The notes under the pieces: model-generated
The model's database searches: none
Seen by the model: only the letters and a program-made list of their open reading frames with translations
What the model was told of the DNA's origin: nothing
Translations under genes and position numbers: made by a program
In this document: in pieces, positions 5,823 to 60,156 of the stretch
How the letters are laid out: every line of letters begins with the position of its first letter
Position numbering within the stretch: position 1 is the first letter of the stretch
From: a bacterium
Lineage (GTDB): Bacteria; Vulcanimicrobiota; Xenobia; Xenobiales; Xenobiaceae
NCBI GenBank assembly: GCA_017458675.1
Contig: JAFTAM010000096.1
Coordinates: 10,210-74,209 of the forward strand
Reading direction: 5' to 3'
DNA: 64,000 bases

Positions 5823-7670
5823 TTGAAAGCTATTGATAGGGCGGAGCCTTCGTTTCTGCCGAATTTTAAAGAATTTTTGGGAGCTTCGGCCTTTTTTCTG
5901 CCGCTGATTTTTCTGGTTGTTTTTCCTTCCTTTGTCAGCGCCGGAGTACAGTCCGGAGGCGAAGAAACGGTGTTTTCCTCCTACTTTCTGGGCAGCGATC
6001 GATCTGACCTTTGGAAGCATACCTGGGATGCCTGGTGGGTAAATTCCGAGCTGCAGCAGGGCAGGTTTCCGCTGCGCTCTTCGCTGCAGAATTTTCCCGA
6101 GGGCGGCAAGCTGTATGTCATCGATCCCTTTAATTCGCTGGTATCCGGACTCATGTCCAGGCTGATCGGTCTGACGGCGGCTTTTAATCTGACTCACCTG
6201 CTGCAGCTTTATCTGTCCTGCATGGGGGCCTGGCTGCTGGGCTGCTGCATTTGCCGAGATAAGGCGGCGGCGCTGGTGACCGGCGTTATTTACGGAATTT
6301 CGCCGTTTATTCTGACCAGCGGCGTTTGCAGCGGCATCTGCGAAACTACCAATCTGGAGTGGCTGCCGCTGAGCCTTTTGGGGCTTATCGTCTGTTTCCG
6401 CACCGAACGTCCCGCCGCAGCGGTAATTTTTACCTCGCTGAGTCTTTGCCTGGGAGCGCTGGGCTGCTGGTATTATTCCATGACCTGCATTATCTGCGTG
6501 GTTATTCTCTGCCTTTGGGCGGCTTTTGTCAAAAGGCTTCCCATACTGGGCTGCGAGGAGAAGCAGAAGCTTAATTGGTTCTGTCCGCTGATCGCCTGTT
6601 TGCTATCTTTAATAATGATCTCTCCCTGCGCTCTGGCATTTGCCGACAGCTTAAAAGGAGAGGGGTCGCTTTTGGCTCAGATTGACATTACCGAAAGGCA
6701 GCAGGCCGGTAATTTGGAGTTTTTCCATAAGGAAGGCCATTTTAAAAACAACGCGCCTTTGCTGGGCTATTTTGTACCGGGAAAGGATAATCTCTCAATC
6801 GCCGACGACGTCGACCTGCGCATGAAGACCGTCTATATAGGCGCCGCCGCGCTGCTGCTGGCCGTTCTGGGCTTTTGCGGAGGAGGCATGGCCTGTCGGT
6901 TCTGGGCTCTTCTGGGAGGCGTGCTGCTTTTGATGTCAACGGGGCCTTATTTCACCTACTGGGGAGAGGATAGCCTTTCAGTTCCCGTAAATCCGATATA
7001 TTGGGCGGCTTATAATTTTGTGCCAGGCTTTAAGATGGCGGTAATTACCGACAGGCTTTCCATCGCCGTGCAGCTGAGCGCTGCGGTGCTGGCTGGAATA
7101 GGCGTTCATTTGCTGAGAGCCGGACTGAAGAAATACTTTATATATGCTGTCTGTCTGCTGGCCCTGACGGTTGTGGCCGAAGTCGTCTTTGTTTCGCCCG
7201 TTCCCTTCCCGCTGCCTGCGGCGGCTTCGGCTATGCCGCGTCAAGCTGAGGCTCTGGCGAAAGAGGAGGGGATGGGCGGCGTTATTCAGCTACCCTTAAA
7301 CAGAATCGGCGGGCAGATGCAGCCGGGCGAATATTACTATTGGCAGACTTTCCACCGGAAGCCGATGCCTATTTCTTTGACGACCCGCTTCCCGAGAAAG
7401 CTCTTTAAAAATATGCTTATGGATACTCTCTATTTATGCGAGGATTCCAGTTACGGCGAGCCTCTGCTTTCCGAATATCTGTTTGAAGGGGCGGAACAGC
7501 TCCGCAAGTCGGGCTTTGAATGGATCTGTGTAAACGGCAATCTAATGAACGGCGTCACTCTGCGCAAGGTAAGATCGGTCCTGGATCAGATATTTCCGAA
7601 TAAGCAAGTTTTTCCTGACGGAGCCGTTCTCTATAAAATTGAAGTTAAAAAAGAGAAGGGAGCCGAATAG
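5823..7670 (+). CDS. Polytopic membrane protein (at least 12 predicted TM helices plus a C-terminal soluble domain), GT-C-like putative glycosyltransferase, function unknown
   Basis: 615 aa with many hydrophobic helices. The first periplasmic loop carries an acidic/aromatic motif (SDRSDLWKHTWDAWW). Paralogue of the 8415-10061 product. Confidence 0.6.
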   Translation: MKAIDRAEPSFLPNFKEFLGASAFFLPLIFLVVFPSFVSAGVQSGGEETVFSSYFLGSDRSDLWKHTWDAWWVNSELQQGRFPLRSSLQNFPEGGKLYVIDPFNSLVSGLMSRLIGLTAAFNLTHLLQLYLSCMGAWLLGCCICRDKAAALVTGVIYGISPFILTSGVCSGICETTNLEWLPLSLLGLIVCFRTERPAAAVIFTSLSLCLGALGCWYYSMTCIICVVILCLWAAFVKRLPILGCEEKQKLNWFCPLIACLLSLIMISPCALAFADSLKGEGSLLAQIDITERQQAGNLEFFHKEGHFKNNAPLLGYFVPGKDNLSIADDVDLRMKTVYIGAAALLLAVLGFCGGGMACRFWALLGGVLLLMSTGPYFTYWGEDSLSVPVNPIYWAAYNFVPGFKMAVITDRLSIAVQLSAAVLAGIGVHLLRAGLKKYFIYAVCLLALTVVAEVVFVSPVPFPLPAAASAMPRQAEALAKEEGMGGVIQLPLNRIGGQMQPGEYYYWQTFHRKPMPISLTTRFPRKLFKNMLMDTLYLCEDSSYGEPLLSEYLFEGAEQLRKSGFEWICVNGNLMNGVTLRKVRSVLDQIFPNKQVFPDGAVLYKIEVKKEKGAE

Positions 7671-15451: not shown

Positions 15452-16261
15452 TTAAGGCTGAGCTTCGCCTTCATGCTGATGTTCATGAGCCTCTGGCGCG
15501 GCCTCGGCTTTGCTTTCATGCTGATGTTCATGAGCTTCGGGCGCGGCTTCGCCTTCTTGCTGATGTTCATGAGCTTCGGGCTGAGCTTCGCCTTCATGCT
15601 GATGTTCATGAGCCTCTGACGCGGCTTCGCCTTCGCCGCTGTGCCGGGCATGTTCATGATGATGCTCCTGCTCGGCGTTTTTCAGCAGTTCGTCGCGGCG
15701 CTCCTTATTGCGTTTGCGCGGATCAAACATCTGTTCAGGGTGCTGTTTGTATTTTACGCAGCGGGCCCGGAAATTTTTGGCTATTGCGTTGTCCGGCTCG
15801 AGGATGAGCGCCTTGTCAATTTCTTCTATGGCGCCGTCGAAGTCTTTGCTGAAAAATAAGGATTCCGCCAGGATATAGTGGAGGTGGTAGGTGTCGGGAA
15901 TATTTTTGATGGCTTGGCGGTAGATCTCGATCTCTTTGTCGTATTCGCCTTCAAAGTAGGCGAAGGCGCCCAGCTCCAGGTAAGGGGTCAGCAGCTCGGG
16001 ATCCAGTTCCATGGCTTTGGCAAAGGACTGCTTGGCCGCGTCAATGCTGCCGGCTTCGATCATCTGATGGCCGAACTCGCACAGCTCAACGGCGTCGGCG
16101 ATCCTTTGCCGCTTTTCCAGGGCGGGAGGCAGAAGCCAGAGCATAACGGCTATGCCGACGACGGCCAGTACTGCTTCTATAATCTGAAGCTTCTTTTTTT
16201 TAGGGTCCTTGTAATAGGCGAGAAAAGGCATAAGGCGTTTTTCCTCAATAATTATTTGCAA
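15452..16261 (-). CDS. TPR-repeat protein with N-terminal TM helix and C-terminal His-rich tandem repeats (HEHQHEGEAxPEA)
   Basis: 269 aa. TPR-like helical repeats (AKQSFAKAMELDPELLTPYLELG, YRQAIKNIPDTYHLHYILAE). The C-terminal 60 aa are His/Glu-rich repeats. Confidence 0.7.
   Translation of the reverse strand: MQIIIEEKRLMPFLAYYKDPKKKKLQIIEAVLAVVGIAVMLWLLPPALEKRQRIADAVELCEFGHQMIEAGSIDAAKQSFAKAMELDPELLTPYLELGAFAYFEGEYDKEIEIYRQAIKNIPDTYHLHYILAESLFFSKDFDGAIEEIDKALILEPDNAIAKNFRARCVKYKQHPEQMFDPRKRNKERRDELLKNAEQEHHHEHARHSGEGEAASEAHEHQHEGEAQPEAHEHQQEGEAAPEAHEHQHESKAEAAPEAHEHQHEGEAQP
15461..15640. repeat. Imperfect 39-45 bp tandem repeats (4 copies) encoding the His-rich tail
   Basis: CATGCTGATGTTCATGAGC recurs at 15471, 15516, 15555 and 15594. 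Confidence 0.75.
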
Positions 16262-16324: not shown

Positions 16325-17875
16325 TTATTTATCGTCCTTGCCGCCTGCGGCTCCGATGGTTTTCATCAGCGGGAAGAGCAGGACGTCGCGGATGGAATTC
16401 TGCTCGGTTAAGAGCATGACCAGGCGGTCTATGCCCATGCCCATGCCGCCGGTGGGAGGCATGCCGTACATCAGAGCGTTGATAAAGTCTTCGTCTATGG
16501 GATGAGCTTCTTCGTCGATGTCCTTCTGGGCCTGCTGCTCCTCGAAGCGTCTGCGCTGATCGAAAGGATCGTTGAGCTCGCTGAAGGCGTTGCAGAGTTC
16601 GCTGCCGCAGACGTAAAGCTCGAAGCGTTCGGTCAGGGTGGGATCGGAAGCCTTGCGTTTGGCCAGGGGCGAAAGCTCGGTGGGATGGTCGGTTACGAAG
16701 GTGGGCTGAATCAGATGCTCTTCGCAGGCGGCCTCAAAAATTTTGTCGATGAGGTGGGCCAGCGTATGCTCCTGATTGCCCAGCTTGACGCCCAATTCCA
16801 GCGCCTTGGCCTTGGCCCGTCCCGGCTCGCGAAGCTCGGCCAGGGAAATATGAGCGTATTCCTGCAGCAGAGAGTCCATGGTGCGCCTGGGGTAGGGAGG
16901 ACGCAGATCGACTTCGTGGCCCATGAAAGTTACCTGATGCTTGTGGAGGACCTCATTGCAGCAGTGATCGATTAAGGCTTCGGTCAGATCCATCATGCCT
17001 TCATAGTCGGTCCAGGCCTCGTAAAGTTCGATGGTGGTAAACTCGGGGTTATGCCTGGTATCGATGCCTTCGTTGCGGAAGATGCGTCCGATCTCATAGA
17101 CCTTTTCCATGCCGCCCACGATACAGCGCTTTAAATGGAGCTCGGTAGCGATGCGCATGTACATGGTAGTGTTCAGGGCGTTGTGGAAGGTGACGAAGGG
17201 ACGGGCGGCCGCGCCTCCAGCTACCGTTGACATAGCGGGAGTTTCGACTTCCAGATAGCCGCGCTCGTCGAGATAGCTGCGGATAGCCGAAACGATGCGG
17301 CTGCGCTTGATAAAGACCTCGCGCACTTCTTTATTGGCGATTAAATCGGCGTAGCGCTGTCGGTAGCGGGTGTCGATGTCGCTGAGGCCGTGGAATTTTT
17401 CCGGCGGAGGAATCAGCCCCTTGGCGGCTATCGACCATGAGGTGACGCGCAGGGAGAGCTCGCCGCGCTTAGTGCGGAATACGGGTCCCTCGACGGTAAT
17501 CAGATCGCCGATGTCGGCTAAGGAAAGGCGTTTATAATCTTCCTCTCCCAAAACGTCCAGCTTGAAATAGAGCTGAATGCGATCGGAAAGATCGGTTAAA
17601 TCCAGGAACGAAGCTTTGCCGTGGCCGCGCCAGGCGGTGATGCGTCCGGCCAGGCTCACGCTTCCGGGAGCTTCTTCTTCGATCTGCAGGTTTTTATATT
17701 CTTCCTTTATGGCAGCGGCGTTCTTGGGACGGGTGAATTTGGTCATGAGATAAGGATCCAAACCCTGCTCCTGAAGAGCGTGCAGGTGCTGCAGTCTAAC
17801 GGCCTGCTGCTCGCTGAGGCTCAGCTCCGGAGCCGGCTGCCATTTTTGCTTTTTTTCCTTTTGCGGCTGATCCAT
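16325..17875 (-). CDS. lysS: Lysine--tRNA ligase (class II)
   Basis: 516 aa with the N-terminal anticodon-binding OB region and class-II motifs (FRNEGIDTRHNPEFTTIELY, GGMGMGIDRLVMLLT). Confidence 0.95.
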   Translation of the reverse strand: MDQPQKEKKQKWQPAPELSLSEQQAVRLQHLHALQEQGLDPYLMTKFTRPKNAAAIKEEYKNLQIEEEAPGSVSLAGRITAWRGHGKASFLDLTDLSDRIQLYFKLDVLGEEDYKRLSLADIGDLITVEGPVFRTKRGELSLRVTSWSIAAKGLIPPPEKFHGLSDIDTRYRQRYADLIANKEVREVFIKRSRIVSAIRSYLDERGYLEVETPAMSTVAGGAAARPFVTFHNALNTTMYMRIATELHLKRCIVGGMEKVYEIGRIFRNEGIDTRHNPEFTTIELYEAWTDYEGMMDLTEALIDHCCNEVLHKHQVTFMGHEVDLRPPYPRRTMDSLLQEYAHISLAELREPGRAKAKALELGVKLGNQEHTLAHLIDKIFEAACEEHLIQPTFVTDHPTELSPLAKRKASDPTLTERFELYVCGSELCNAFSELNDPFDQRRRFEEQQAQKDIDEEAHPIDEDFINALMYGMPPTGGMGMGIDRLVMLLTEQNSIRDVLLFPLMKTIGAAGGKDDK

Positions 17876-17925: not shown

Positions 17926-18459
17926 TTATTTTGCACTGTCTTCCTGCTTTTTCTCTTCATCTTCCTTTGTCACTATTACAATGTCTTCGATTTTCCAGGA
18001 AATTAAGCCTGAAGGGGTACGGACGTCAACGATATCGCCTACGCCGTGGCCGATCAGGGCTTCTCCTAAAGGACATTCGTTGGAAATGCGGCCCTGCTGA
18101 GGATTGGCTTCTCTGGTACCGACTATCTCCATGGTGTATCTTTCCTCTTCGGCTTCGGGGTCGGTGTTGACGAAGGTTACGGCTGTGCCTACCGATACGG
18201 CGTCCGTGCTGAGATCTTCGATGGTGATGACCTTGCAGTTCTGCAGGGTATGCTCTATATCGCTGATTTGACCTTCGATGAGTCCCTGCTCGTTTTTGGC
18301 GCTCTCATATTCGGCGTTTTCGGAAATATCTCCGAATTCGCGGGCGACTCTGATGCGGTCGGCTATCTGACTGCGTCTGACGGTTTTTAAAAAGTTGAGT
18401 TTTTGTTCGAGATCCAACTTGCCCTGTTCGGTCAGGATGGTGGGTTTTTCGTTAGCCAT
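17926..18459 (-). CDS. greA: Transcription elongation factor GreA
   Basis: 177 aa. Coiled-coil N-terminus with the conserved acidic tip (FGDISENAEYESAK) and a C-terminal FKBP-like domain. Confidence 0.9.
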   Translation of the reverse strand: MANEKPTILTEQGKLDLEQKLNFLKTVRRSQIADRIRVAREFGDISENAEYESAKNEQGLIEGQISDIEHTLQNCKVITIEDLSTDAVSVGTAVTFVNTDPEAEEERYTMEIVGTREANPQQGRISNECPLGEALIGHGVGDIVDVRTPSGLISWKIEDIVIVTKEDEEKKQEDSAK

Positions 18460-18483: not shown

Positions 18484-19425
18484 TTAAAATTTTACAATAC
18501 GGGGCCTGAAATTCAAGCGCTTTATTAAATCCAGATAGTCTTGGGGAGTGACATCGTCCCATTTTTTGCCCAGCATGGAGATCATTACCGCTTCCATAAC
18601 GTTGGTTCCGAAGGAACGTCCGCTGAACTCCGGCGTAGTGGTTACCAGGCAGGAAACGCCGCGCTCTTTGAGTTCTTCAACGTTGGCTGAGGTGACGGTG
18701 TTGGTTATGATAATTTTGCCGTCCAGGCGCTCCGGCATGCGCCGGCGGATAAAGAGAAAATCGCCGGCAATTATCTCGGCGTCCCGATAGTATTTATCCG
18801 TCATGGGCGTCGGCTCAATGGAGTTCTGCTTGCTGCCGGTGGGATAGACCATGCTTATGGGCATTTTGCAGATATCGGGCAAGAGTTTGTCGGCTCTTTC
18901 GGCCAGCTCGTCCAGATTGGTGACGGGCTGATCGATATCCAGAGTAAAGATCATGTCGCCGTAAGTTACCTTGGCGCCGAACTTATCCAGGGATTCGGCC
19001 ATGCCGAAACGGTCCATGGCGCAGACCATCAGAACTTTTCTATCTTTGAAGTTTATGATGTTCTCTTCGGCCAGGATACGAATGGTTTCTCTTTCCAGAG
19101 TATTCTTCAAGCCGCTGCCGTCGACGACGGGAGTTTTTTTGACCAATTGGAGCAGCCGCAGACCGTCGCGCAGAGCGTAGCGCTTGTTTTTGCTGTAAAT
19201 GTAGACGTCCAGACCCCCCAGGCCTATGGCGTCGACTTTGCCGTCCAGTTCCTGGAGCATGGCCTTGGCTCTGCGGATATCTCCGTCGGTTCCGCGCCGG
19301 GAAATTTCAAATTTCTGCCCCAGCAGCTCGGCAGTAACCTTGTGATCGCGGGAAGCCGAACCGATGCTGACGCTGACGATATGCTTGATATTTTCTTGAG
19401 GCAAGTTTATGCTTTCAGTGCTCAT
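18484..19425 (-). CDS. Hypothetical protein (weak AroM/Asp-Glu-racemase-like resemblance); last gene of the AAR operon
   Basis: 313 aa. Its start overlaps the upstream gene stop (ATGA at 19422-19425). No confident family assignment. Confidence 0.5.
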   Translation of the reverse strand: MSTESINLPQENIKHIVSVSIGSASRDHKVTAELLGQKFEISRRGTDGDIRRAKAMLQELDGKVDAIGLGGLDVYIYSKNKRYALRDGLRLLQLVKKTPVVDGSGLKNTLERETIRILAEENIINFKDRKVLMVCAMDRFGMAESLDKFGAKVTYGDMIFTLDIDQPVTNLDELAERADKLLPDICKMPISMVYPTGSKQNSIEPTPMTDKYYRDAEIIAGDFLFIRRRMPERLDGKIIITNTVTSANVEELKERGVSCLVTTTPEFSGRSFGTNVMEAVMISMLGKKWDDVTPQDYLDLIKRLNFRPRIVKF

Positions 19426-20531
19426 ATGGAAAACATGCGCGAATCTTTGCTGCGCTCTTTCGATAAAGTTTTGACCTGCTCTATGCGGTCGGCGGTTATG
19501 GGCTCGTCGAAAGCCCGCAGACCGGCCAGCTTAAAGCCGTGCTTCTTGGCTAAGCGGCTTATCTCTTCGACTTTCTCTATATGCAGGCCGCGCCCTATGG
19601 AGTAATCTTCGAAGCGTCCTTCCATGGTTAAGATCATGGTTTCAGCCATGCAGGCCAGGCAGATGCCCTTGGGAAAGCCGAAATCGAAATTAAATTCGGG
19701 ATTCTCTCCCGGAGGCACGCAGACGCCGCCTTCGATCACTAAAATATCCGGTCTCAGCTGAGCCACCTCGCGGCAGACGTCGTGGGGCACGGCCACGTCG
19801 CAGATGACCGCTCCGGTTTTAAAGACGTTGGGCTTTAAAATGTCGCCGCCCGAGGAGGTGCAGGACACTACCAGATCGGCCTCCTGAATGGCAGTCTCCA
19901 TGTCTGTGGATATTTCCAGCTCCAGTTGGGGGGCGAGTTCATGTATCTCCTGAGCGGTCTTAGCCAGGCGGCTTTCGCTGCGGGCCAGCAGGAGCAGCTT
20001 GCCCAGCTTGTTTTTTGCCAGAATTTTGGAACAGACGCTGCCTATAGAGCCGGTTGCGCCTACCACGGCGGCGGTGGCTCCGGCTATGTCTTTGTCCAGA
20101 AGCTCATAGGCTTTGGCGGCGCCTTCGATGGCGGTGGCCACCGTATAGCTGTTGCCGCTGGTAATGGCAATCTCCATAGCCTCGGCTATTTCCAGGCCGG
20201 CCGAACCTACAACGGAGGTGTAGCCGCCTAAGCCGACTATCTGCGCGCCGTCCTTTTCCGCCAGTTTACAGGCGTCCATAATGCGCCCTACTACAAATTG
20301 GCGATCGAGGCCGGTAATTTGGGTGGGGAGGAGAGGAACGGTATAAAAATCGCCTTCGATGCCTTTGCCGTCATAGGCCGAGGTTATGCCCGTCACATGG
20401 GAAGCGTGATATGAGGGCGTCCATTCCAGCACTTTTTTGATGAGCGGTTCTCTTTTGCCTGAAACATGAGGCAGATGGCGGACGATATCGCGCATGCCTA
20501 AAGGATGAATAAGAAATCCGAAGCGGTTCAC
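19422..20531 (-). CDS. Acyl-ACP reductase (AAR) family NAD(P)-dependent oxidoreductase
   Basis: 369 aa. Block-wise similarity along the length to cyanobacterial AAR: the N-terminal FGxIxH, GLGGYTSVV versus ALGGFTSII, ATAAVVGATGSIGSVCSKIL versus ATVAVVGATGDIGSAVCRWL, LLLARSESRL versus LILTARNQERL, and the C-terminal ...HIEKVEEISRLAKKHGFKLAGL versus ...TIEKMEAIGEASVRHGFQPLAL. Confidence 0.8.
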   Translation of the reverse strand: MNRFGFLIHPLGMRDIVRHLPHVSGKREPLIKKVLEWTPSYHASHVTGITSAYDGKGIEGDFYTVPLLPTQITGLDRQFVVGRIMDACKLAEKDGAQIVGLGGYTSVVGSAGLEIAEAMEIAITSGNSYTVATAIEGAAKAYELLDKDIAGATAAVVGATGSIGSVCSKILAKNKLGKLLLLARSESRLAKTAQEIHELAPQLELEISTDMETAIQEADLVVSCTSSGGDILKPNVFKTGAVICDVAVPHDVCREVAQLRPDILVIEGGVCVPPGENPEFNFDFGFPKGICLACMAETMILTMEGRFEDYSIGRGLHIEKVEEISRLAKKHGFKLAGLRAFDEPITADRIEQVKTLSKERSKDSRMFSI

Positions 20532-20533
20532 GG

Positions 20534-20974
20534 CTAAGCCTGTCCTTCAACGCGTTTTTTCATGCTCTTCAGCATCATGTCGGAGTTTTCGGTAACCTTG
20601 ATTTCCAGAACTCCGCCTATCAGGTGAATCAGCTCGGGAATGCCGAAATCGTAATCGACGGTTAAGGTAATTTTGCAGCCTTCTTCGGTGGGCTCAAAGA
20701 TCCATTCGCCTTCAAACTTATCCAAATCTCCGTCAATGAGCTTGTAGCTGACGATCATATGCTCGTCGTCGAACTTATCCTGTTCGGTCCATATGATTTC
20801 CGTGCCGTCAATTTCCGTGACCCAATCGGTAACGGTGCTGTTTTCGCCTCGGTCAATTACGGTTACGCTCTGCACGTCGGGCATAAATTTAGGAAAGCTT
20901 TCCATATCCTTGGCGAGCTCATAGGCTTGGCGGGGATCGCCTTTTGCTTCGATACTGCGGACTACGTAAGTCAT
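20534..20974 (-). CDS. SRPBCC (START/Bet v1-like) ligand-binding protein
   Basis: 146 aa. Typical polyketide-cyclase/lipid-binding fold signature of that size. Only 3-nt gaps to its neighbours. Confidence 0.65.
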   Translation of the reverse strand: MTYVVRSIEAKGDPRQAYELAKDMESFPKFMPDVQSVTVIDRGENSTVTDWVTEIDGTEIIWTEQDKFDDEHMIVSYKLIDGDLDKFEGEWIFEPTEEGCKITLTVDYDFGIPELIHLIGGVLEIKVTENSDMMLKSMKKRVEGQA

Positions 20975-21027
20975 CTTGCCTCCGAAAGTTTTTGGGTTAA
21001 AAGTTTAAAGTTTCTGCCTGCTGCCGC

Positions 21028-22299
21028 TTAATCGTTAAATTTGCCGGCAAACATGGAGCGGGTCTTGGCTAAAGATTCCTCCAGAGATTTCAGGCAAAGA
21101 TCGATTTCTTCCCGTCCTATGGACAGGCAGGGTTCAAAGCGGATGACCTTAGGCTGATTCAAGGTATAAACCGCGATAATATTGCGGTGGGCCATCTCGG
21201 AAATGACGGAGCCGGCGTATTCTTCTCTGGTGGTTTCTATGCCCAGAAGCAGTCCCAGGCCGCGTACCTCTTTTATTATCTCGCCGTACTTGCCGGCCAG
21301 CTCCTGCAGGCGTCCTTTGAAATATGCTCCGCTTTGGGCCGATTTTTCGCAGAGGTTTTCCTTTTCGTAAACCTCCAGAGTCGCCAGGCCGGCCGTGCAG
21401 GCCAGGGCGCTGCCGCCGAAGGTGGAGGTGTGGATGGTGGGACGTCCCTTGAAGGCCTGCCAGACGTTGGGAGTGCCGATAAAAGCGCCGATGGGAATAA
21501 TTCCGCCGCTCAGGGCCTTGGCCATGACCAGAATATCGGGAACCACGTTCCAGTGATTGACGGCGAACATTTTGCCGGTGCGTCCGAAGCCGGTCTGAAC
21601 CTCGTCGGCGATCAGCAGAGCGCCATGTTTATCGCAGACTTCGCGAATTTTCTGCATATAACCGTCGGGAGCAACGTGAATGCCGCCCTCTCCCTGGACC
21701 GGTTCAATGATGACGGCGGCCACGCTTTCGTCAACGGCGCTTTCCAGAGTCTGGAAATCGCCGAAGGGGACGTGGCGCACTTCGGGCATTAAAGGAGCGA
21801 AGGGAGCGCGGTAATTGGGGCGGCCCGATACGGCCAGGCTGCCGGTCGACTTGCCGTGGAAAGCGTTTTCCATGGCTACAAAGACGGTGCGTCCGGTGCG
21901 CAGTCGGGCAATTTTCAGAGCGCCCTCGACGGCCTCGGTGCCGCTGTTGCAGAAGAAGGTAAATTTCAGGTCTCCCGGAGTAATTTCCGCCAGCTTCTTG
22001 GCCAGGCGGGCCTGGGCTTCGGTAAAGAATACCTTGGCGGAGAGAGACATTTTATGGAGCTGCTTTTCGATGGCTTCAATTACATGAGGGTGCGAATGGC
22101 CGATGCAGAAGACGCCGTAGCCTCCGGCCATATCCAGATATTTCTGGCCGGTGTTGTCCCATACCCAGCAGCCCTCGGCATGATCCTCTACCGTCCCCAG
22201 TCCGGTAATGCGGATGACTCTGGTCAGATCGGGATTGATATACTCGCGGTACATACGGGAAATTTCTCTGGTCGATAACTCTTCTGTCATATAAAACAC
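21028..22299 (-). CDS. Class-III (omega) PLP-dependent aminotransferase
   Basis: 423 aa. Gly-rich PLP-binding region (GGYGVFCIGHSHP), DEVQTGFGRTGKMFA with the Schiff-base Lys context (VMAKALSGG), C-terminal ...TFGGSALAC. Confidence 0.88.
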   Translation of the reverse strand: MFYMTEELSTREISRMYREYINPDLTRVIRITGLGTVEDHAEGCWVWDNTGQKYLDMAGGYGVFCIGHSHPHVIEAIEKQLHKMSLSAKVFFTEAQARLAKKLAEITPGDLKFTFFCNSGTEAVEGALKIARLRTGRTVFVAMENAFHGKSTGSLAVSGRPNYRAPFAPLMPEVRHVPFGDFQTLESAVDESVAAVIIEPVQGEGGIHVAPDGYMQKIREVCDKHGALLIADEVQTGFGRTGKMFAVNHWNVVPDILVMAKALSGGIIPIGAFIGTPNVWQAFKGRPTIHTSTFGGSALACTAGLATLEVYEKENLCEKSAQSGAYFKGRLQELAGKYGEIIKEVRGLGLLLGIETTREEYAGSVISEMAHRNIIAVYTLNQPKVIRFEPCLSIGREEIDLCLKSLEESLAKTRSMFAGKFND

Positions 22300-22505
22300 C
22301 CTATTTCAGCAGCTCGGTATGAACCTTGCAGAAATAAATAATATCTGCAGCTCGGCGGCTGCAGATTCTTAACTGATATAAGCTGTCTGCAATTCTCCGC
22401 TTTATTCCCCTTTCCTTTAGAATAATAATTTGAGGCTTTCAAGCGGCGGGTCATAATTATTTATGCAGATAGGAGGTTGCGGCAGCCGCAGAAAAATAGG
22501 CGTCT

Positions 22506-50970: not shown

Positions 50971-53175
<2,205 letters not shown>

Positions 53176-53590: not shown

Positions 53591-54604
53591 TTGAAAATAA
53601 ATAATCGCCGATATTTAGGCAATAAATATAAACTGCTTCCTTTTATTAAGAAGATTATTTCAGAAGAATGTGTCGACGTTAAGACCTTTTTTGATGTGTT
53701 TGCAGGTACTGGGGCGGTGGCGTCAGCTTTTTTAGATAAAGAACTGATAGTAAACGATATTTTATACAGCAATTATCTGGCCCATTTAACCTGGTTAAGC
53801 GCAGAAGCTTATAGCGGAGAAAAAATAGCCGCTTGCATAGATTTTTACAACAGTCTGAAAGATATAGCTTCCGATAATTATATGTCTGTAAATTTTGCCA
53901 ATACCTATTTTTCTTATGAAGTTTGTAAGAAAATCGGTTTTATAAGAGAGGATATTGAACAGAAATTTGCGGCAGGCTGTTTAAACAGGCGCGAACATGC
54001 AATGTTGGTGACTTCGCTGCTGTATGCTATAGATAAAATCGCCAATACCTGCGGTCATTACGATGCTTATCGTAAGAACGTTAGTTACTCGAATAACTTT
54101 ATTATGGAAGTTCCGGAAATAGAAAAGGAAGGTCTAAAGAGCAACAGCTTTTATACTGAAGATTCCAACGAGCTTGTAAAGAGAATTGTTTGTGACTTGG
54201 CTTATTTAGACCCTCCCTATAACAGCCGCCAATATTGTGATGCCTACCATTTACCGGAAAATATCGCCAGGTGGGAAAAACCGAAGGTCTACGGAGTTGC
54301 AGGGAAGATGGATCGCAGCGGTTTGAAAAGCGCTTACTGTACTCAAAAGGCTGTATCGGCCTTTGCTGATTTAATTAGCAAGCTGCGCTGCAGATATATA
54401 GTGCTTTCTTATAATAATACAGGCGAAGGCGCAGATGGCAGAAGTAATGCTAAAATAAGCGATGACGCAATAATGCGCATTCTATCGGCAAAGGGGCAAG
54501 TTACGGTGTTTTCTCAGTCATATAAAGCCTTTTCTGCCGGAAAGTCTGAGAATAATCATAATCAGGAAAGGCTGTTTTTATGCAAAGTCAATGCCAAATC
54601 ATAG
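53591..54604 (+). CDS. D12-class N6-adenine DNA methyltransferase (M1) of a Type IIS-like RM system
   Basis: 337 aa. Dam-family motifs: N-terminal RYLGNKYKLLP (SAM-binding) and the catalytic DPPY (LAYLDPPYN). AT-rich. Confidence 0.85.
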   Translation: MKINNRRYLGNKYKLLPFIKKIISEECVDVKTFFDVFAGTGAVASAFLDKELIVNDILYSNYLAHLTWLSAEAYSGEKIAACIDFYNSLKDIASDNYMSVNFANTYFSYEVCKKIGFIREDIEQKFAAGCLNRREHAMLVTSLLYAIDKIANTCGHYDAYRKNVSYSNNFIMEVPEIEKEGLKSNSFYTEDSNELVKRIVCDLAYLDPPYNSRQYCDAYHLPENIARWEKPKVYGVAGKMDRSGLKSAYCTQKAVSAFADLISKLRCRYIVLSYNNTGEGADGRSNAKISDDAIMRILSAKGQVTVFSQSYKAFSAGKSENNHNQERLFLCKVNAKS

Positions 54605-55503
54605 CTTCACCTTTAAATTATACCGGCGGAAAGGCCAGACTGTTTCCGCAGATTAGACCTTTATTTCCTGATTATATTAATACTTTTGTCGATCTTTTCT
54701 GTGGCGGCTGTAATGTAGGTATAAATACAAAAGCTGAACGGTATTATTATAATGATATATCCGAACCTTTAATTGGCCTTTATCAAACCTTTCTTGAAGT
54801 TTCAGAGGATGAACTAATAAGCGATTTTGATAGAATCATCAACAGTTATAATTTATCAGACAGTACAAAGCACACCTACGAATATTATTCCTGCAACAGT
54901 TCTGAAGGCTTGGCTGCTTATAATAAGAGCAAATTTGAAAATATAAGAGACGATTTCAATGCTCTCACCCAAAAAGATAAATACTATTATGAGCTGTTCT
55001 ATATGCTTATTGTTTTCGGATTTAACAATCAGATTCGTTTTAATAAGAATGGACAGTTTAATTTACCAGTAGGTAAAAGAGATTTTAATTTTAAGATACG
55101 AAGAAAGCTATCAGCTTTTTTAAAGGTCTTGAAAAAACAGAAGCCTGTAATTACTAATATCCATTTTAATGATTACGATATGTCTCATTTGAATGATGAT
55201 TGCTTTGTCTATTGCGATCCTCCTTATCTGATTGCTACAGCGGCATATAATGAAAATGGTAAGTGGACTGAAAAGGAGGAATATGAATTATTGGGTCTTT
55301 TGGATAGACTGAACGCAAAGAAGCTTCGTTTTGCTTTGTCAAATGTATTAAGTCATAAGGGCAAAGAGAACAAACTGCTAAAGCGGTGGACTGAGAAAAA
55401 CAGATATAAGGTTCATCATTTAAATTTTGGTTATACGAACTCAAATTATCATACTAAGGATAAAGTAAATCTCTCCGATGAAGTTTTAATAGTGAATTAT
55501 TAA
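54580..55503 (+). CDS. Second D12-class N6-adenine DNA methyltransferase (M2)
   Basis: 307 aa. LNYTGGKARL and VYCDPPYL motifs. Overlaps M1 by 25 nt. Confidence 0.85.
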   Translation: MQSQCQIIASPLNYTGGKARLFPQIRPLFPDYINTFVDLFCGGCNVGINTKAERYYYNDISEPLIGLYQTFLEVSEDELISDFDRIINSYNLSDSTKHTYEYYSCNSSEGLAAYNKSKFENIRDDFNALTQKDKYYYELFYMLIVFGFNNQIRFNKNGQFNLPVGKRDFNFKIRRKLSAFLKVLKKQKPVITNIHFNDYDMSHLNDDCFVYCDPPYLIATAAYNENGKWTEKEEYELLGLLDRLNAKKLRFALSNVLSHKGKENKLLKRWTEKNRYKVHHLNFGYTNSNYHTKDKVNLSDEVLIVNY

Positions 55504-55516
55504 GGTTGGTGAAATT

Positions 55517-57334
55517 ATGGAAACTTTGTGGAGTATGAGTACGACGGTTCGTGAAGCGGAAAGAATAATTGGATTTTTGCAGACCGCTTTAGAGCTGGAT
55601 GGTGAAGTCTGGAATAAAGATAATCAAAAAAAATTTCAGATTTTACTGATAAAAAACAGACAGTATCTAAATGATCCGGACAATACGCAGTCATTCAGTA
55701 AGCTGTCGGCAGAACAAGTCTCGTTACTTAAAGATAAATCTGTACGAATGACTTACGAACAGGCGAAAGAGATATTTGAAGCCAAAGATTATAATGATCC
55801 TCCTATGCGCGGCAGACAGTCGATGTCTCCTTTAACAAAATTAGGTTTGGTCTATATTGAAAAAGATAAAAGGGTGGCAGTGTCTGATGTAGGGCATAGA
55901 TTGATCAATGGGGATATTGATTTCTCTGATTTTATGTTGGAAGCGCTTTTAAAATTTCAGTATCCCAATCCTTATGAAAGCGGTTTTAAAACTTGGGATA
56001 CAAAGCCGTTTATAAATACTCTTCGTTTAATTAAGCTTGTAAACGAAAAATGCAGAGAAAACGGTTTAAAGGAAAAAGGAATTTCCAAAATTGAATTTGG
56101 CATATTCGCTTTATCGCTGCAGTCGTTTGAACTGGTTGAAAAAACTGCGGCTGAAATTTTAGAATTCAGAAAGATGTATGAAGCTTATACCGATGAAGCG
56201 TTAAGAGATAAATATATAAGCGATTATATTAAGGAGTATTTAGGCGCATTTAAAAATCCTGAAAAAAATATCAAAGAATATACCGATAATATGATTCGTT
56301 ATTTAAGGTTGACAAAATATATTTACATCAGAGGTAAATATGCTAACACCTATATCGACCTTGAACCCAGAAGAATGACTGAGATTAATTCCATATTGGA
56401 GGCAGATGATGGAAGCGCACAAGCTTTTTCAGATGAAGAGTGGCGTAACTATATGGGTATATACGGAAAGTATAGTTTGCCGTTTGAAACTGTCGAAAAA
56501 CTGTCAGAAATAGTCCAGGGTATTCAGCATGATATCAATAGAATAGAAGGTAAAATTGGCTTAAAACTTACAAGGATAGAATTATGCAGTCAAAAAGAAG
56601 CTTTGAAGCAACAGATAGATAAGCTGAGATTATACAGAACTGAGCTGCAGAATCTGGAACTAAAGAAAGATTATCACGAAGATATTAAAAAAATTGAAGA
56701 AGCTATAGAATCATTAGAAGAGATAAGAAAACGCAATAAAGCCGGGTTGTCAAAAAAATTCTCCATAGAATTGGAAAAATGGGCCAATGTCGCTTTAAAT
56801 GTTATAAACGACGCCATACTTATTAAACCAAACTATCCCGTCGGCGACGATAATGAACCGATTTATACTGCTCCGAACGGGGCGCCTGATATAGAATGCT
56901 ATTACGATAGTTTTGGAGCAATATGTGAAGTTACCATGCTGACGAGCAGAGATCAATGGTACAATGAGGGCCAGCCGGTAATGCGTCATCTGCGACAGTT
57001 TGAAGTCAAAAACAGCCGTTTGCCTAACTACTGCTTATTTGTGGCGCCTTCTTTACATATAGACACCGTAAACACTTTTTATATGTCTGTAAAATATGAA
57101 TATGAAGGTGCAGCGCAAAAGATTATTCCTATAACGATTTCGCAGTTAGAAAATATTTTAGAGGCAGTTAAGCAATTGATTATAAAAGGGAAAACTTTAC
57201 CGCATTCTGAGATAATGAAACTGTATGATCGCTGCTGCAGTATTGCCGGCTTGAGCAGCTCGAAATTATGGTTAGAACATATTGCAAAAGAATTAAATTC
57301 CTGGTTTGAAGGGCTGGCTGCTTTGGCAGTATAG
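55517..57334 (+). CDS. Putative Type IIS restriction endonuclease or nicking enzyme of the AlwI/PleI/MlyI/N.BstNBI family
   Basis: 605 aa, which matches the size of N.BstNBI/PleI. A PD...(D/E)xK-like segment (APDIECYYDSFGAICEVT). Sits downstream of two Dam-like MTases, the signature arrangement of asymmetric-site IIS systems. Confidence 0.55.
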   Translation: METLWSMSTTVREAERIIGFLQTALELDGEVWNKDNQKKFQILLIKNRQYLNDPDNTQSFSKLSAEQVSLLKDKSVRMTYEQAKEIFEAKDYNDPPMRGRQSMSPLTKLGLVYIEKDKRVAVSDVGHRLINGDIDFSDFMLEALLKFQYPNPYESGFKTWDTKPFINTLRLIKLVNEKCRENGLKEKGISKIEFGIFALSLQSFELVEKTAAEILEFRKMYEAYTDEALRDKYISDYIKEYLGAFKNPEKNIKEYTDNMIRYLRLTKYIYIRGKYANTYIDLEPRRMTEINSILEADDGSAQAFSDEEWRNYMGIYGKYSLPFETVEKLSEIVQGIQHDINRIEGKIGLKLTRIELCSQKEALKQQIDKLRLYRTELQNLELKKDYHEDIKKIEEAIESLEEIRKRNKAGLSKKFSIELEKWANVALNVINDAILIKPNYPVGDDNEPIYTAPNGAPDIECYYDSFGAICEVTMLTSRDQWYNEGQPVMRHLRQFEVKNSRLPNYCLFVAPSLHIDTVNTFYMSVKYEYEGAAQKIIPITISQLENILEAVKQLIIKGKTLPHSEIMKLYDRCCSIAGLSSSKLWLEHIAKELNSWFEGLAALAV

Positions 57335-57391: not shown

Positions 57392-58975
57392 CTAATCTTC
57401 GAGACGGTCGCGGAACTTTTTAATGAGCTCCACCTTGGCGTCCAGCAGCTTGGTGGTCAGGGACACGTGATAGATATGGGGATTGTGCATGCGCAGAACG
57501 CCGGTGTCGAGGTAGTTGAGGTCGGCGGTGCGGTTGGCCTTCAGCTCCTGCAGAGAGGGAGCGGGACGGGTGCGGCCGCCCTTGTCCCAGACGGTCTGGA
57601 GCAGCGGCTCGACCCGGCTGATTTCCTGTCTCTTTAAGCGGCGCATGACGTCTTTTTCGACGGGATGATGGAGTTCGAGGACCTCTTCGGAGGCGGGTTC
57701 CTCGTCGGCGAAGCCCACCAGATCGGCGGTGGCGCGGCCGCGGCTGTCGTAGATGCGCCAGGCGGTCTTGTGGCCGGGATTGATGAGCTTGGCTATAGAG
57801 TTGGAGAACTTCATGGCCGGGACCCATTTGCCGTCGACCTGCAGGGCCACCAGCTTATAGACGCCGCCCAGGGCGGACTGGCCGTCTGAGGTTATCAGGC
57901 GGGTGCCCACTCCGTAGGTCAGCCTGTCGATGACCTTCTGAGGATCGGCGCCGTTTCGGGGAGCGTCCTCGCGGATCTGTATATTGATCTGGTTGATGGT
58001 CATTTCGTCCAGGTCGTTGGATAAAACTATGCAGGCCTTGGGGAAGCCGGCTTCGTCAAGAACCTTGGAGACCTGAATGGCCAGATAAGCCAGGTCGCCC
58101 GAATCGAGGCGCACGCCGACAGGCTCATAGCCTTTGGAGCGCAGGTTCTTAAAGACTTTAATGGCGTTGGGCAGACCGCTCTTCAAGCTGTCGATGGTGT
58201 CGATCAGGAGCAGGCAGTTGTCGGGATAGAGATCGGCGTAGGCCTGGAAGGCCTCGTATTCGCTCTTGCCCAGGGCCAGCCAGGTCTGGACCATAGCATG
58301 GGAGTGTGTACCCTTGGGAGGCAGGCCCATGGCGTAGGACTGACCGACGTTGGAGGTATAGTCGCAGCCTCCGATAACAGCCGCTCTGGCCCCGAAGTTG
58401 CCTCCGTAGCCGTGGGCGCGGCGCAGACCGAATTCCATCAGGAGCTTGCTGCCGCAGCTGTGGCGGATGCGGGAGGCTTTAGTGGCGATTAAGGTCTGAA
58501 AGTTGATGATATTTAAAAGGGTGGTTTCCAGAATCTGGGCCATGGCCAGGGGACCTTCGACCATGGTTATCGGCACGTTGGGATGGATTACCCGGCCTTC
58601 GGCCATAGCTTTGACGGTGAGCTTTCTGAAATTTCCCTCTTTTCTGAGCCAGTCCAGAAATTCGGGACAGAAGACGGGATTGCCCTTAGCGTCCTTTTCA
58701 CCGGCTAAATAGTGCAGATCGTTATCGTCAAAATGAGCTTCTTTCATCCAGTCCAGCAGCGATTCCAGACCGGCGTATATGCAATATCCGGCCTTGTGGC
58801 CGCCGTAGTTGGGATATTGGCGGAAGAAGTGGTCGAAATGGGCTCTCTGCTCATGAATGCCGGCTTTGAAATAAAGCTGCGCCATGGTCAGCTGATACAT
58901 GTCGGTAAACAGAATGCCCTGAGTAAGGCGGTTTAGCGTTTGCTGATCCATAAAAGATACAGGTCCCTTTCTCAA
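57392..58975 (-). CDS. pncB: Nicotinate phosphoribosyltransferase (large, eukaryote-like NAPRT type)
   Basis: 527 aa. N-terminal LFTDMYQLTMAQ, a central GTHSHAM-containing TIM-barrel-like region. Stop/start overlap with the hexokinase gene (ATGA). Confidence 0.85.
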   Translation of the reverse strand: MRKGPVSFMDQQTLNRLTQGILFTDMYQLTMAQLYFKAGIHEQRAHFDHFFRQYPNYGGHKAGYCIYAGLESLLDWMKEAHFDDNDLHYLAGEKDAKGNPVFCPEFLDWLRKEGNFRKLTVKAMAEGRVIHPNVPITMVEGPLAMAQILETTLLNIINFQTLIATKASRIRHSCGSKLLMEFGLRRAHGYGGNFGARAAVIGGCDYTSNVGQSYAMGLPPKGTHSHAMVQTWLALGKSEYEAFQAYADLYPDNCLLLIDTIDSLKSGLPNAIKVFKNLRSKGYEPVGVRLDSGDLAYLAIQVSKVLDEAGFPKACIVLSNDLDEMTINQINIQIREDAPRNGADPQKVIDRLTYGVGTRLITSDGQSALGGVYKLVALQVDGKWVPAMKFSNSIAKLINPGHKTAWRIYDSRGRATADLVGFADEEPASEEVLELHHPVEKDVMRRLKRQEISRVEPLLQTVWDKGGRTRPAPSLQELKANRTADLNYLDTGVLRMHNPHIYHVSLTTKLLDAKVELIKKFRDRLED

Positions 58976-60156
58976 TTATGACTTAAAGCTGCGTAGGCAG
59001 CGCCCAGAAGGTTGGCATTGTCAACCTTTATTATCTTAAAGGTAACCTGAGGTCCGACTAATTTGGGAAGGAGCTCCTGCACATAGGGGGCCAGCAGCGG
59101 ATCGGCCCAGTAGCGGCTGCCTTCGGCAGCAATGCAGAAATGTCCCTCGTTGCCTAAAGCTTTGATGAATCCGGCCAGACCGGCGGCGATTAAATCGGCG
59201 GAGCGGGTCAGGATGGCTTCGGCAATTTCATCGTTCTCTTCGTCTCTTTTGGCGGTGAGGACCGAACTGCCTTCGTAGGGATCGAAGGATTTGTCTTCGG
59301 GGCAGGCCTGAGCGTAGAGGAAGGGCAGATAGTAGCCCGACAGCGCCTTCTCAAAGCGCTGACGCCCCGGCATGTCCATCTGGGAATCCATCAGGTCGTC
59401 ATAGGCGTTCAGATAGGGAGGCGTAAAATTGCCCGATTCAAGATTTACGGCCATCGTGGATTTGTTCCAGGGCAGCGCCCCCAGTTTGTTGCAGGGAGAT
59501 ACTTTGACGAAGCCGGCCATGTTGGTTCCGGTGCCGGCGATCAAGCCTATAAATTTGTCAAATTCCTGAGCATGGGCTCCGGCCCCGGCCAGGAGAGCGG
59601 CCACGGTATCGTTCAAAACCGTTATTTTTCCGGTTTGATAGCCTAAATCGGCGAAGGCTTCGCCCAGAAGTTTGCCTACAGGCCGTCCCTCCACGTTGGT
59701 AACATGGATGTCTTTGGTCCAGTGGATCAGGCTGGCGTCGGAATCGGGAGTGGATTGAGCCGGGTAAGAAAAGCAGTAGCCCACCGGCAGATTCGGTTCG
59801 GGATTCAGCTGCAGAGCCAGTTTGGCCTGAAAGGCAAAAAATTCCTGAGAAGAAAAGGGCTTGCCCTGACGTCCGGAGGGGATGTGATCCTTCAGGGGAC
59901 CGGCTTTGACCTCGCAGGTTCCGTCAGGGAATAATTCAACGATGGCAGCCCGGACGTTGGTTCCGCCGATATCGACGATCAGAACCCTGCCCTTCAGACC
60001 CTGAGCGGGCTGCTGCAGATAAGCGGGAATAGCCTTGATCTCTCCGCCGTCTTCATCCAGGCCTTCTTTAATTTTCCGGCACATAGCCTGAGAAATATCC
60101 TGCAGCTGTTCGGAAGTCAGGCGAAAAGCCGCCGCAGTGTTGGCAATATTTTCCAT
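58972..60156 (-). CDS. Hexokinase-family sugar kinase
   Basis: 394 aa. LIVDIGGTNVRAA (hexokinase phosphate-1), GYCFSYP and LNDTVAALLAGA motifs. Confidence 0.8.
   Translation of the reverse strand: MENIANTAAAFRLTSEQLQDISQAMCRKIKEGLDEDGGEIKAIPAYLQQPAQGLKGRVLIVDIGGTNVRAAIVELFPDGTCEVKAGPLKDHIPSGRQGKPFSSQEFFAFQAKLALQLNPEPNLPVGYCFSYPAQSTPDSDASLIHWTKDIHVTNVEGRPVGKLLGEAFADLGYQTGKITVLNDTVAALLAGAGAHAQEFDKFIGLIAGTGTNMAGFVKVSPCNKLGALPWNKSTMAVNLESGNFTPPYLNAYDDLMDSQMDMPGRQRFEKALSGYYLPFLYAQACPEDKSFDPYEGSSVLTAKRDEENDEIAEAILTRSADLIAAGLAGFIKALGNEGHFCIAAEGSRYWADPLLAPYVQELLPKLVGPQVTFKIIKVDNANLLGAAYAALSHN

Follow-up and report, generated by a model that had tools for sequence, protein, structure and literature searches.

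A conserved four-gene cassette of Eremiobacterota/Vulcanimicrobiota with a predicted route from acyl thioesters to primary amines

The cassette described here is found in a 64,000-nucleotide stretch of DNA, called the window throughout, from a bacterium of the family Xenobiaceae in the phylum Vulcanimicrobiota (GenBank assembly GCA_017458675.1, contig JAFTAM010000096.1, positions 10,210 to 74,209). It comprises genes for a class-III pyridoxal-phosphate (PLP) aminotransferase (AT), a START-type protein of the SRPBCC superfamily, a reductase related to acyl-ACP reductase (RED), and a protein of a family that has no Pfam model (UNK). With moderate confidence, we read the operon as an unfused counterpart of the thioester reductive amination systems PigE, TamH and KecF, to which the START and UNK proteins are added as partners.

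Genes, junctions and upstream region

The features of the locus are given in Table 1. Rereading of the open reading frames (ORFs) and their junctions bears out the four-gene operon described in an earlier note on this DNA, including its coordinates and spacings. The AT gene, for which an alternative ATG start is possible at 22290, is separated from the START gene by a 53-nucleotide spacer carrying a GGAGG ribosome-binding site, as read from the sequence. The gap between the START and RED genes is only 2 nucleotides (TAG-cc-GTG), and RED and UNK overlap by 4 nucleotides (ATGA). UNK is followed by a 24-nucleotide spacer with its own GGAGG. Because this spacer is short and no terminator-like site was found in it, greA is probably co-transcribed with the cassette. 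The flanks of the cassette in the window contain greA, lysS, recQ and an ABC transporter, and the divergent gene upstream of AT encodes an ABC-transporter binding protein.

Table 1. Features of the cassette and its surroundings, in window coordinates
Feature	Position	Strand	Basis or location
AT: class-III PLP omega-aminotransferase, 423 aa	21028..22299	minus	ORF, Pfam
SRPBCC/START (helix-grip) protein, 146 aa	20534..20974	minus	ORF, Pfam
RED: predicted AAR/PigE-N-type NADPH-dependent thioester reductase, 369 aa, GTG start	19422..20531	minus	profiles, solved structures
UNK: two-domain AAR-like predicted fold, 313 aa, public label "quinate 5-dehydrogenase"	18484..19425	minus	
greA, in conserved housekeeping backbone	17926..18459	minus	ORF, junction
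lysS (class II lysyl-tRNA synthetase), backbone neighbour after greA	16325..17875	minus	
Perfect 9-bp inverted repeat ATCTGCAGC-N6-GCTGCAGAT	22343..22366	minus	AT leader / divergent intergenic region

The inverted repeat in the AT leader occurs once in the window and has a T-rich run on its 3' side on the cassette strand. Its role might be that of an operator or attenuator. Inspection by eye revealed nothing similar in the corresponding region of locus L007. A riboswitch search of the 15-24 kb part of the window gave no match at E <= 1, so the leader offers no clue to a ligand. A PADLOC scan for defence systems gave zero matches.

The four proteins

RED is named "shikimate dehydrogenase" in public databases because it matches PF01488. 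This is the best of its Pfam matches, which are limited to the Rossmann-type NAD(P)-binding region. The score of RED on the aroE model is 22.8 bits, as compared with a cut-off of 200 bits, and the search of solved structures returned zero shikimate dehydrogenases at E <= 0.01. The structures that do match, with the whole protein aligned, are PigE (4ppm, E 3.7e-35) and then acyl-ACP reductase (AAR; 6jzq, E 1.7e-24). The Rossmann region also matches HemA models (E about 1e-14). Residues 3-362 of RED align with positions 1-362 of the PigE model NF053554 at 206 bits, short of its equivalog cut-off of 850 bits, and the AAR model TIGR04058 gives 104.5 bits, short of its cut-off of 449.7. Identity is approximately 30% to PigE's N-terminal domain and approximately 31% to AAR across 280 aligned residues.

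The AAR-like blocks that the earlier note had pointed out in RED are all found (FGFLIHP, GLGGYTS, VVGATGSIGS, LARSESRL and KHGF), together with a catalytic-cysteine motif, LACMAET. In alignment with AAR, LAC294MAET lies opposite FAC294FAEA, and GATGSIG opposite GATGDIG. Both Cys294 and GATGSIG are invariant among 14 diverse orthologues, and the catalytic cysteine is present in 46 of 47 RED-family sequences. RED, which keeps the cysteine and the NADPH loop, is classed by its sequence as a thioester reductase of the AAR superfamily and not as a shikimate dehydrogenase. Its narrower assignment in the earlier note, to the cyanobacterial type of AAR, does not hold; the profile scores suggest that RED is closer to the reductase domain of PigE. 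Since RED is approximately 30% identical to each and falls below both cut-offs, it would represent a third clade of the superfamily.

Cyanobacterial AAR (TIGR04058; PDB 6JZQ) shares with RED its fold, the GATGxIG loop, the Cys294-type nucleophile, and the FGxIxH, GLGGxTS and HGF blocks. However, the partner of cyanobacterial AAR is aldehyde-deformylating oxygenase (ADO), whereas the enzyme predicted to act downstream of RED is a transaminase. The earlier note had remarked that the window has no ADO here, and none is present among the operon genes and flanks of the window and of loci L001-L006, for which Pfam assignments were available and all of which belong to other families; the remainder of the genome lay outside this search.

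AT matches the Pfam family Aminotran_3 with an E value of 6e-114. Its best match among solved structures is the putrescine aminotransferase YgjG (E 4e-110), and its second best is the transaminase domain of PigE (4e-86). Profile scores follow the same ranking, with 459 bits for the putrescine aminotransferase model NF008570 (cut-off 612, not reached), 422 bits for the model of the PigE C-terminal domain, and 399 bits for ArgD, just below the cut-off of 410.05. Active-site residues were mapped by using the published YgjG structure (PMC4244111) and 58 cassette orthologues, which with the AT of the window make 59 sequences. The PLP lysine (Lys261) is conserved among the orthologues, as are Glu204 and Arg387, the pair that recognizes glutamate/2-oxoglutarate. 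Lys150 occupies the position of YgjG Lys183, and 57 of the 59 sequences have lysine here. In acetylornithine aminotransferase (AcOAT/ArgD), ornithine aminotransferase (OAT) and gamma-aminobutyrate (GABA) aminotransferase, this position holds the arginine that binds the substrate carboxylate (PMC4244111). Of the YgjG contacts, Lys183, Phe180, Leu419 and Thr332 are kept in the AT family, and two that touch putrescine are changed, namely Gln119 (Lys/Arg89 in AT) and Phe327 (Leu/Val/Thr288). Lys150 and the changed putrescine contacts thus imply that AT is neither a canonical ArgD/GabT enzyme nor an orthologue of YgjG. The omega-transaminase assignment made in the earlier note is thereby upheld, and AT is predicted to be of the YgjG/PigE type.

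The third family named in the earlier note, START/SRPBCC, is also confirmed. The protein matches Polyketide_cyc at 2e-19 (70.5 bits, gathering score 23.4) and Polyketide_cyc2 at 6e-17, and its closest solved structure is TTHA0849, a hypothetical START protein of Thermus thermophilus (2d4r, E 1.8e-22).

UNK has zero matches in sequence searches of Pfam, NCBIfam and the PDB, and its public name, "quinate 5-dehydrogenase", is supported by no model or structure search. The family comprises 969 clusters at 50% identity, includes a Thermus thermophilus protein, and lacks a Pfam model. No paper on the family or on the UNK cassette was found in the literature searched. An AlphaFold2 model built from 13 homologues (pLDDT 89.8) predicts an N-terminal alpha/beta domain followed by a Rossmann-like domain, and AAR is the closest solved fold. 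Among 110 family representatives, down to approximately 30% identity, conservation reaches 90% or more at about 26 positions. Many of these are charged (R43, D61, D102, K107, E111, R139, D157, D222 and R270), and N275 is also among them. No cysteine reaches this level of conservation.

A weak but co-linear local alignment places TN275VMEA of UNK opposite AC294MAET of RED, and "VCAMDRFGMA" opposite "VVGATGSIGS", and the glycine-rich NAD(P) loop is absent from UNK. In the predicted secondary structure, strand, loop and helix are arranged in a matching way. From this alignment and the secondary structure, Asn275 probably sits at the position of the catalytic cysteine. The terminal amidation domain (TAD) of the carmabin pathway (PDB 9E4S) keeps the invariant cysteine and binds NAD. 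UNK, in contrast, lacks the glycine-rich loop and, in the weak local alignment, has asparagine in place of the cysteine.

Conservation and genomic setting

A genome scan with the UNK family, by using one genome per species, found the family in at least 590 species, and the best 80 loci were analysed. These come mostly from Eremiobacterota/Vulcanimicrobiota, with Desulfotomaculia making up a further group. Judging by the 75% amino-acid identity of UNK and by taxonomy, the window itself probably belongs to class Xenobia, close to Candidatus Bruticola. The complete cassette, with its genes in the same order, is found in 58 of these 80 loci, whose RED proteins are 41-77% identical to that of the window. 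RED is directly upstream of UNK in 66 of the 80, and a greA homologue lies inside the stored flank in 52. This recurrence of an identical four-gene order implies that the genes did not come together by chance. Homologues of RED at 53-67% identity are accompanied by this set of four, in unchanged order, on contigs whose flanks otherwise differ. When metagenome loci are counted, UNK and RED are adjacent in 28 of 80, as compared with the 66 of 80 genome loci, and both gene orders occur.

These data bear on the possibility that the four genes are merely unrelated neighbours, in which AT serves as the housekeeping transaminase for acetylornithine or GABA and RED is a dehydrogenase of the shikimate/quinate type. 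The near-threshold ArgD score of AT and the public names of RED and UNK are in keeping with this idea. However, the aroE score of RED, the restriction of its PF01488 match to the Rossmann domain, the lack of any shikimate dehydrogenase among its structural matches, and the missing carboxylate-binding arginine of AT all conflict with it. Moreover, the gene order and tight junctions (2-nucleotide gap, 4-nucleotide overlap) are kept over approximately 40% sequence divergence, and RED is found naturally fused both to AT (PigE and others) and to UNK. The idea is largely refuted, and we give it very little chance of being correct.

In Eremiobacteria, the cassette is flanked upstream by coaBC, coaX and dusB, and downstream by greA, lysS, truA, rplM and rpsI. 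Its setting is thus a housekeeping backbone rather than a biosynthetic gene cluster. Variant cassettes contain a mixed set of inserted genes (GGDEF, glyoxalase, OsmC, Rce1-like and MscS-like). No acyl carrier protein (ACP), ligase or further pathway enzyme was found among these inserted genes, which suggests that the substrate is drawn from a general pool. Many Eremiobacteria carry an APC-family permease of the amino-acid/polyamine type between UNK and greA; the cassette in the window lacks it.

UNK also occurs in other contexts. In Desulfotomaculia, UNK homologues (56-60% identity) are found without AT, START or RED, and are followed by a lipid-binding protein of the SCP2 type and an APC permease. 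Genes for a germination-related Germane-domain protein and an amidase are nearby in L043, L070 and other Desulfotomaculia loci, where UNK lies at about 6001-6900. The putative lipid-binding partner beside UNK is START in Eremiobacterota and SCP2 in Desulfotomaculia. A second UNK subfamily, from metagenomes, most commonly has the order (birA-bioY-)coaX-(dus)-UNK-RED-greA-lysS, in which UNK and RED are reversed and AT is absent. In Thermus and Meiothermus, the order is speB-like/hydrolase-UNK-efp-accB-accC, and UNK overlaps efp by 4 nucleotides. On the Thermus thermophilus chromosome (L167, 10001-11454), the run consists of genes for an M20 peptidase, an arginase-family SpeB-like protein and an alpha/beta hydrolase, a 54-aa ORF, UNK, efp, accB and accC, and is tight and co-directional. 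A role in modification of EF-P was considered and dropped, as the loop tip of Thermus EF-P is arginine (KLGRGG) and the efp gene of the window is approximately 9 kb away.

Fusions of UNK with RED occur in four separate protein clusters. One of these fusions (P0276) is present on two independent contigs, two (P0306 and P0348) on one contig each, and P0356 is the fourth cluster. An AlphaFold2 model of P0276 made without an alignment was unusable (pLDDT 34). A short-chain dehydrogenase/reductase (SDR) beside a UNK-RED fusion was rejected as a candidate aldehyde reductase, as it is a dTDP-glucose 4,6-dehydratase. On another metagenome contig (L168, 1364-3652), the UNK domain is fused to an alpha-oxoamine synthase resembling BioF, KBL and serine palmitoyltransferase, in a protein of 762 amino acids. 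UNK is thereby connected with a second type of acyl-thioester-using enzyme. UNK and RED are therefore the recurrent and older core, which in other lineages is also found without AT, and AT and START are an extension that is characteristic of, and near-universal in, Eremiobacterota.

Elsewhere in the window, genes for two N6-adenine methyltransferases of the D12 (Dam-like) class and for a restriction endonuclease of the AlwI family lie in a low-GC island (53591-57334; GC 0.36-0.44, as compared with about 0.53 elsewhere). They probably form a type IIS restriction-modification system gained by horizontal transfer. A 734-aa protein (50971-53175) contains two phosphofructokinase stretches, which suggests a duplicated enzyme, and a 394-aa protein (58972-60156) matches the eukaryote-type families Hexokinase_1 and Hexokinase_2. 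For a bacterium, either sugar-kinase architecture is unusual. A TPR protein (15452-16261) ends in repeated His/Glu-rich units of the "EAHEHQHEGEA" type and might bind metal.

Proposed pathway and competing readings

The chemistry that turns thioesters into aldehydes and then into amines is already known from pigment and alkaloid pathways, and the suggestion in the earlier note that it had not been described for AAR homologues is therefore incorrect. PigE acts in this way in the MAP branch of prodigiosin synthesis in Serratia (PMC8341465). TamH, from the tambjamine YP1 pathway, converts C12-acyl-ACP to dodecylamine in vitro with glutamate as donor (PMC9594044), which is the very route that the earlier note put forward. 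In koreenceine synthesis, the AAR-type reductase of KecF is coupled to a class-III transaminase (PMC6498172), and fusions of a transaminase (TA) with AAR are present in the Firmicutes Thermaerobacter and Thermincola (PMC10829540). An unrelated reductase-transaminase pair in Streptomyces yields the same kind of amine (bioRxiv 10.1101/2025.08.11.669332).

PigE (PDB 4PPM) resembles the cassette in joining an AAR-like reductase domain with a catalytic cysteine to a class-III transaminase akin to YgjG and ArgD. It is the best match of RED by both profile and solved structure. However, PigE is a single 850-aa fusion in a pigment cluster with PigD and PigB, whereas in the cassette the reductase and transaminase are separate ORFs that are split by the START gene and flanked by housekeeping genes. 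TamH, KecF and the TA-AAR fusions also combine a class-III transaminase with an AAR-type reductase, in the order opposite to that of PigE, with the transaminase preceding the thioester reductase within the fusion. TamH requires TamA, a dedicated adenylation-ACP protein. Both TamH and KecF belong to secondary-metabolite clusters, unlike the cassette, which has no PigD/PigB, TamA or polyketide synthase (PKS)-type setting. For TamH, KecF and the TA-AAR fusions, neither a START nor a UNK partner is reported. What is distinct in the cassette is thus its separate genes, two extra conserved partners, core-genome neighbourhood and phylum-wide distribution.

A more distant parallel is found in HemA and HemL (glutamyl-tRNA reductase and glutamate-1-semialdehyde aminomutase), in which a cysteine-dependent reductase that acts on an activated carboxyl group passes an aldehyde to a PLP enzyme of the class-III fold. 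However, the likeness of HemA to RED is limited to the NADPH domain, and the HemA substrate is a tRNA ester. This analysis found no evidence that RED uses an aminoacyl-tRNA. Lysyl-tRNA, suggested as a RED substrate by the HemA analogy and by the adjacent lysS gene, was set aside as remote. The lysS adjacency is read as inherited gene order, and the arrangement is better explained by the insertion of UNK-RED into an inherited coaX-dus-greA-lysS backbone.

Conversion of an acyl thioester to an aldehyde and then to a primary amine, as the earlier note proposed, is the most economical chemical reading of the cassette. On the basis of homology and conserved motifs, RED would load an acyl group from a phosphopantetheine thioester, either acyl-ACP or acyl-CoA, onto Cys294 and would reduce it with NADPH to the aldehyde, as AAR does (PMC7089970). 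The active-site residues of AT suggest that it would use glutamate/2-oxoglutarate to turn this aldehyde into a primary amine without an omega-carboxylate. The START protein would probably protect the hydrophobic intermediate, whether acyl or aldehyde, or else present acyl-ACP. UNK may act as a non-redox, AAR-like partner of RED, and its adjacency and natural fusions to RED suggest that it possibly docks at the RED N-terminal domain. In AAR, the acyl tunnel opens at the N-terminal domain, which is the docking site of ADO, and engineered ADO-AAR fusions join the C-terminus of ADO to the N-terminus of AAR (PMC7089970). The natural UNK-RED fusions share this topology, and by analogy they are compatible with docking of UNK at the aldehyde exit. 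An aliphatic acyl chain of medium to long length is considered most likely, and a hydrophobic chain is favoured by the aliphatic precedents and by the START and SCP2 partners.

Several findings weigh against this pathway. As noted above, RED falls below the cut-offs of both the PigE and the AAR models, and the functions given for this clade are predictions from homology. The nearest characterized relative of AT uses putrescine, a polar diamine, and 56 of the 59 AT sequences have a basic residue, K/R89, in place of Gln119 of YgjG. The APC permease of many Eremiobacteria likewise fits a small polar substrate. The crystal cavity of TTHA0849 is nearly closed, at roughly 18 cubic angstroms (PMC13525633), so a role of the START protein as a lipid carrier is a guess. 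Profile-profile comparison of UNK with RED/AAR by hhalign is not significant (E 0.025 with small alignments, 0.47 with broad ones), and the homology of UNK to AAR is consequently argued from predicted structure. Finally, because Thermus and Desulfotomaculia have UNK without RED or AT, the role of UNK is not bound to this pathway alone.

Some of these findings keep alive a variant with the same chemistry and a small polar substrate. In this variant, RED would reduce malonyl-, succinyl-, glutaryl- or aminoacyl-CoA/ACP, and AT would make an omega-amino acid or diamine for primary metabolism, such as beta-alanine, GABA, 5-aminovalerate or a polyamine precursor. The similarity of AT to putrescine aminotransferase, the conserved basic residues K150 and K/R89 that line its distal pocket, and the permease that follows UNK in Eremiobacteria and Desulfotomaculia would all be accommodated. 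The neighbouring genes can be read in the same way, as the cassette adjoins coaBC-coaX in Eremiobacterota and coaX elsewhere, and a speB-like gene of the arginase family is upstream of UNK in Thermus; phylum-wide conservation among housekeeping genes also suggests a core metabolite. However, coaX-dus-greA-lysS recurs across many loci, an order that is presumably also found in Firmicutes, so this synteny may be inherited rather than functional. Also, every characterized reductase of the AAR superfamily uses polyketide or aliphatic C8-C18 chains, a hydrophobic ligand is indicated by the START and SCP2 partners, and lysine rather than arginine at position 150 of AT speaks against a carboxylate substrate of the GABA or ornithine type. 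We therefore regard a small polar substrate as unlikely.

Alternately, the cassette might run in the catabolic direction. AT would convert an imported primary amine to the aldehyde, and RED, acting in reverse as a CoA/ACP-acylating aldehyde dehydrogenase, would feed beta-oxidation. Thermodynamics favours the oxidation of an aldehyde to a thioester. A permease often adjoins the cassette, and YgjG physiologically runs from amine to aldehyde (PMC4244111). However, no reverse activity is reported for the AAR-family enzymes reviewed, and no regulator or beta-oxidation gene lies in or beside the cassette in the loci examined. In addition, the cassette sits among constitutive housekeeping genes and, in the window, has no permease. 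The catabolic direction is thus rated improbable, and it and a set of unrelated neighbours are the less likely explanations of the locus.

In a tentative and somewhat doubtful extension of the preferred reading, UNK and RED would form an ancient two-protein machine that generates aldehydes in the primary metabolism of Terrabacteria, in Eremiobacterota as well as further lineages, with relatives that have UNK alone in Desulfotomaculia and Thermus. UNK would be a newly recognized AAR-like class with asparagine in place of cysteine, acting as an obligate partner of RED or as acceptor of the aldehyde, and AT and START would add phylum-wide synthesis of a primary amine in Eremiobacterota. If so, this amine, perhaps a fatty amine that goes into an amino-lipid, would be a housekeeping product rather than a secondary metabolite.

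The analysis sets right the widespread misnaming of RED as "shikimate dehydrogenase" and of UNK as "quinate 5-dehydrogenase". The cassette also provides a functional handle on the UNK family, with its 969 clusters and no Pfam model, and the homologue in Thermus thermophilus offers a genetically tractable organism in which to study it. Unfused pairs of a reductase and its natural transaminase partner are of practical interest for converting fatty acids to amines. If the proposed pathway is correct, Eremiobacterota/Vulcanimicrobiota, a candidate phylum known nearly only from metagenomes, would make a primary amine by a route otherwise associated with pigment and alkaloid clusters.

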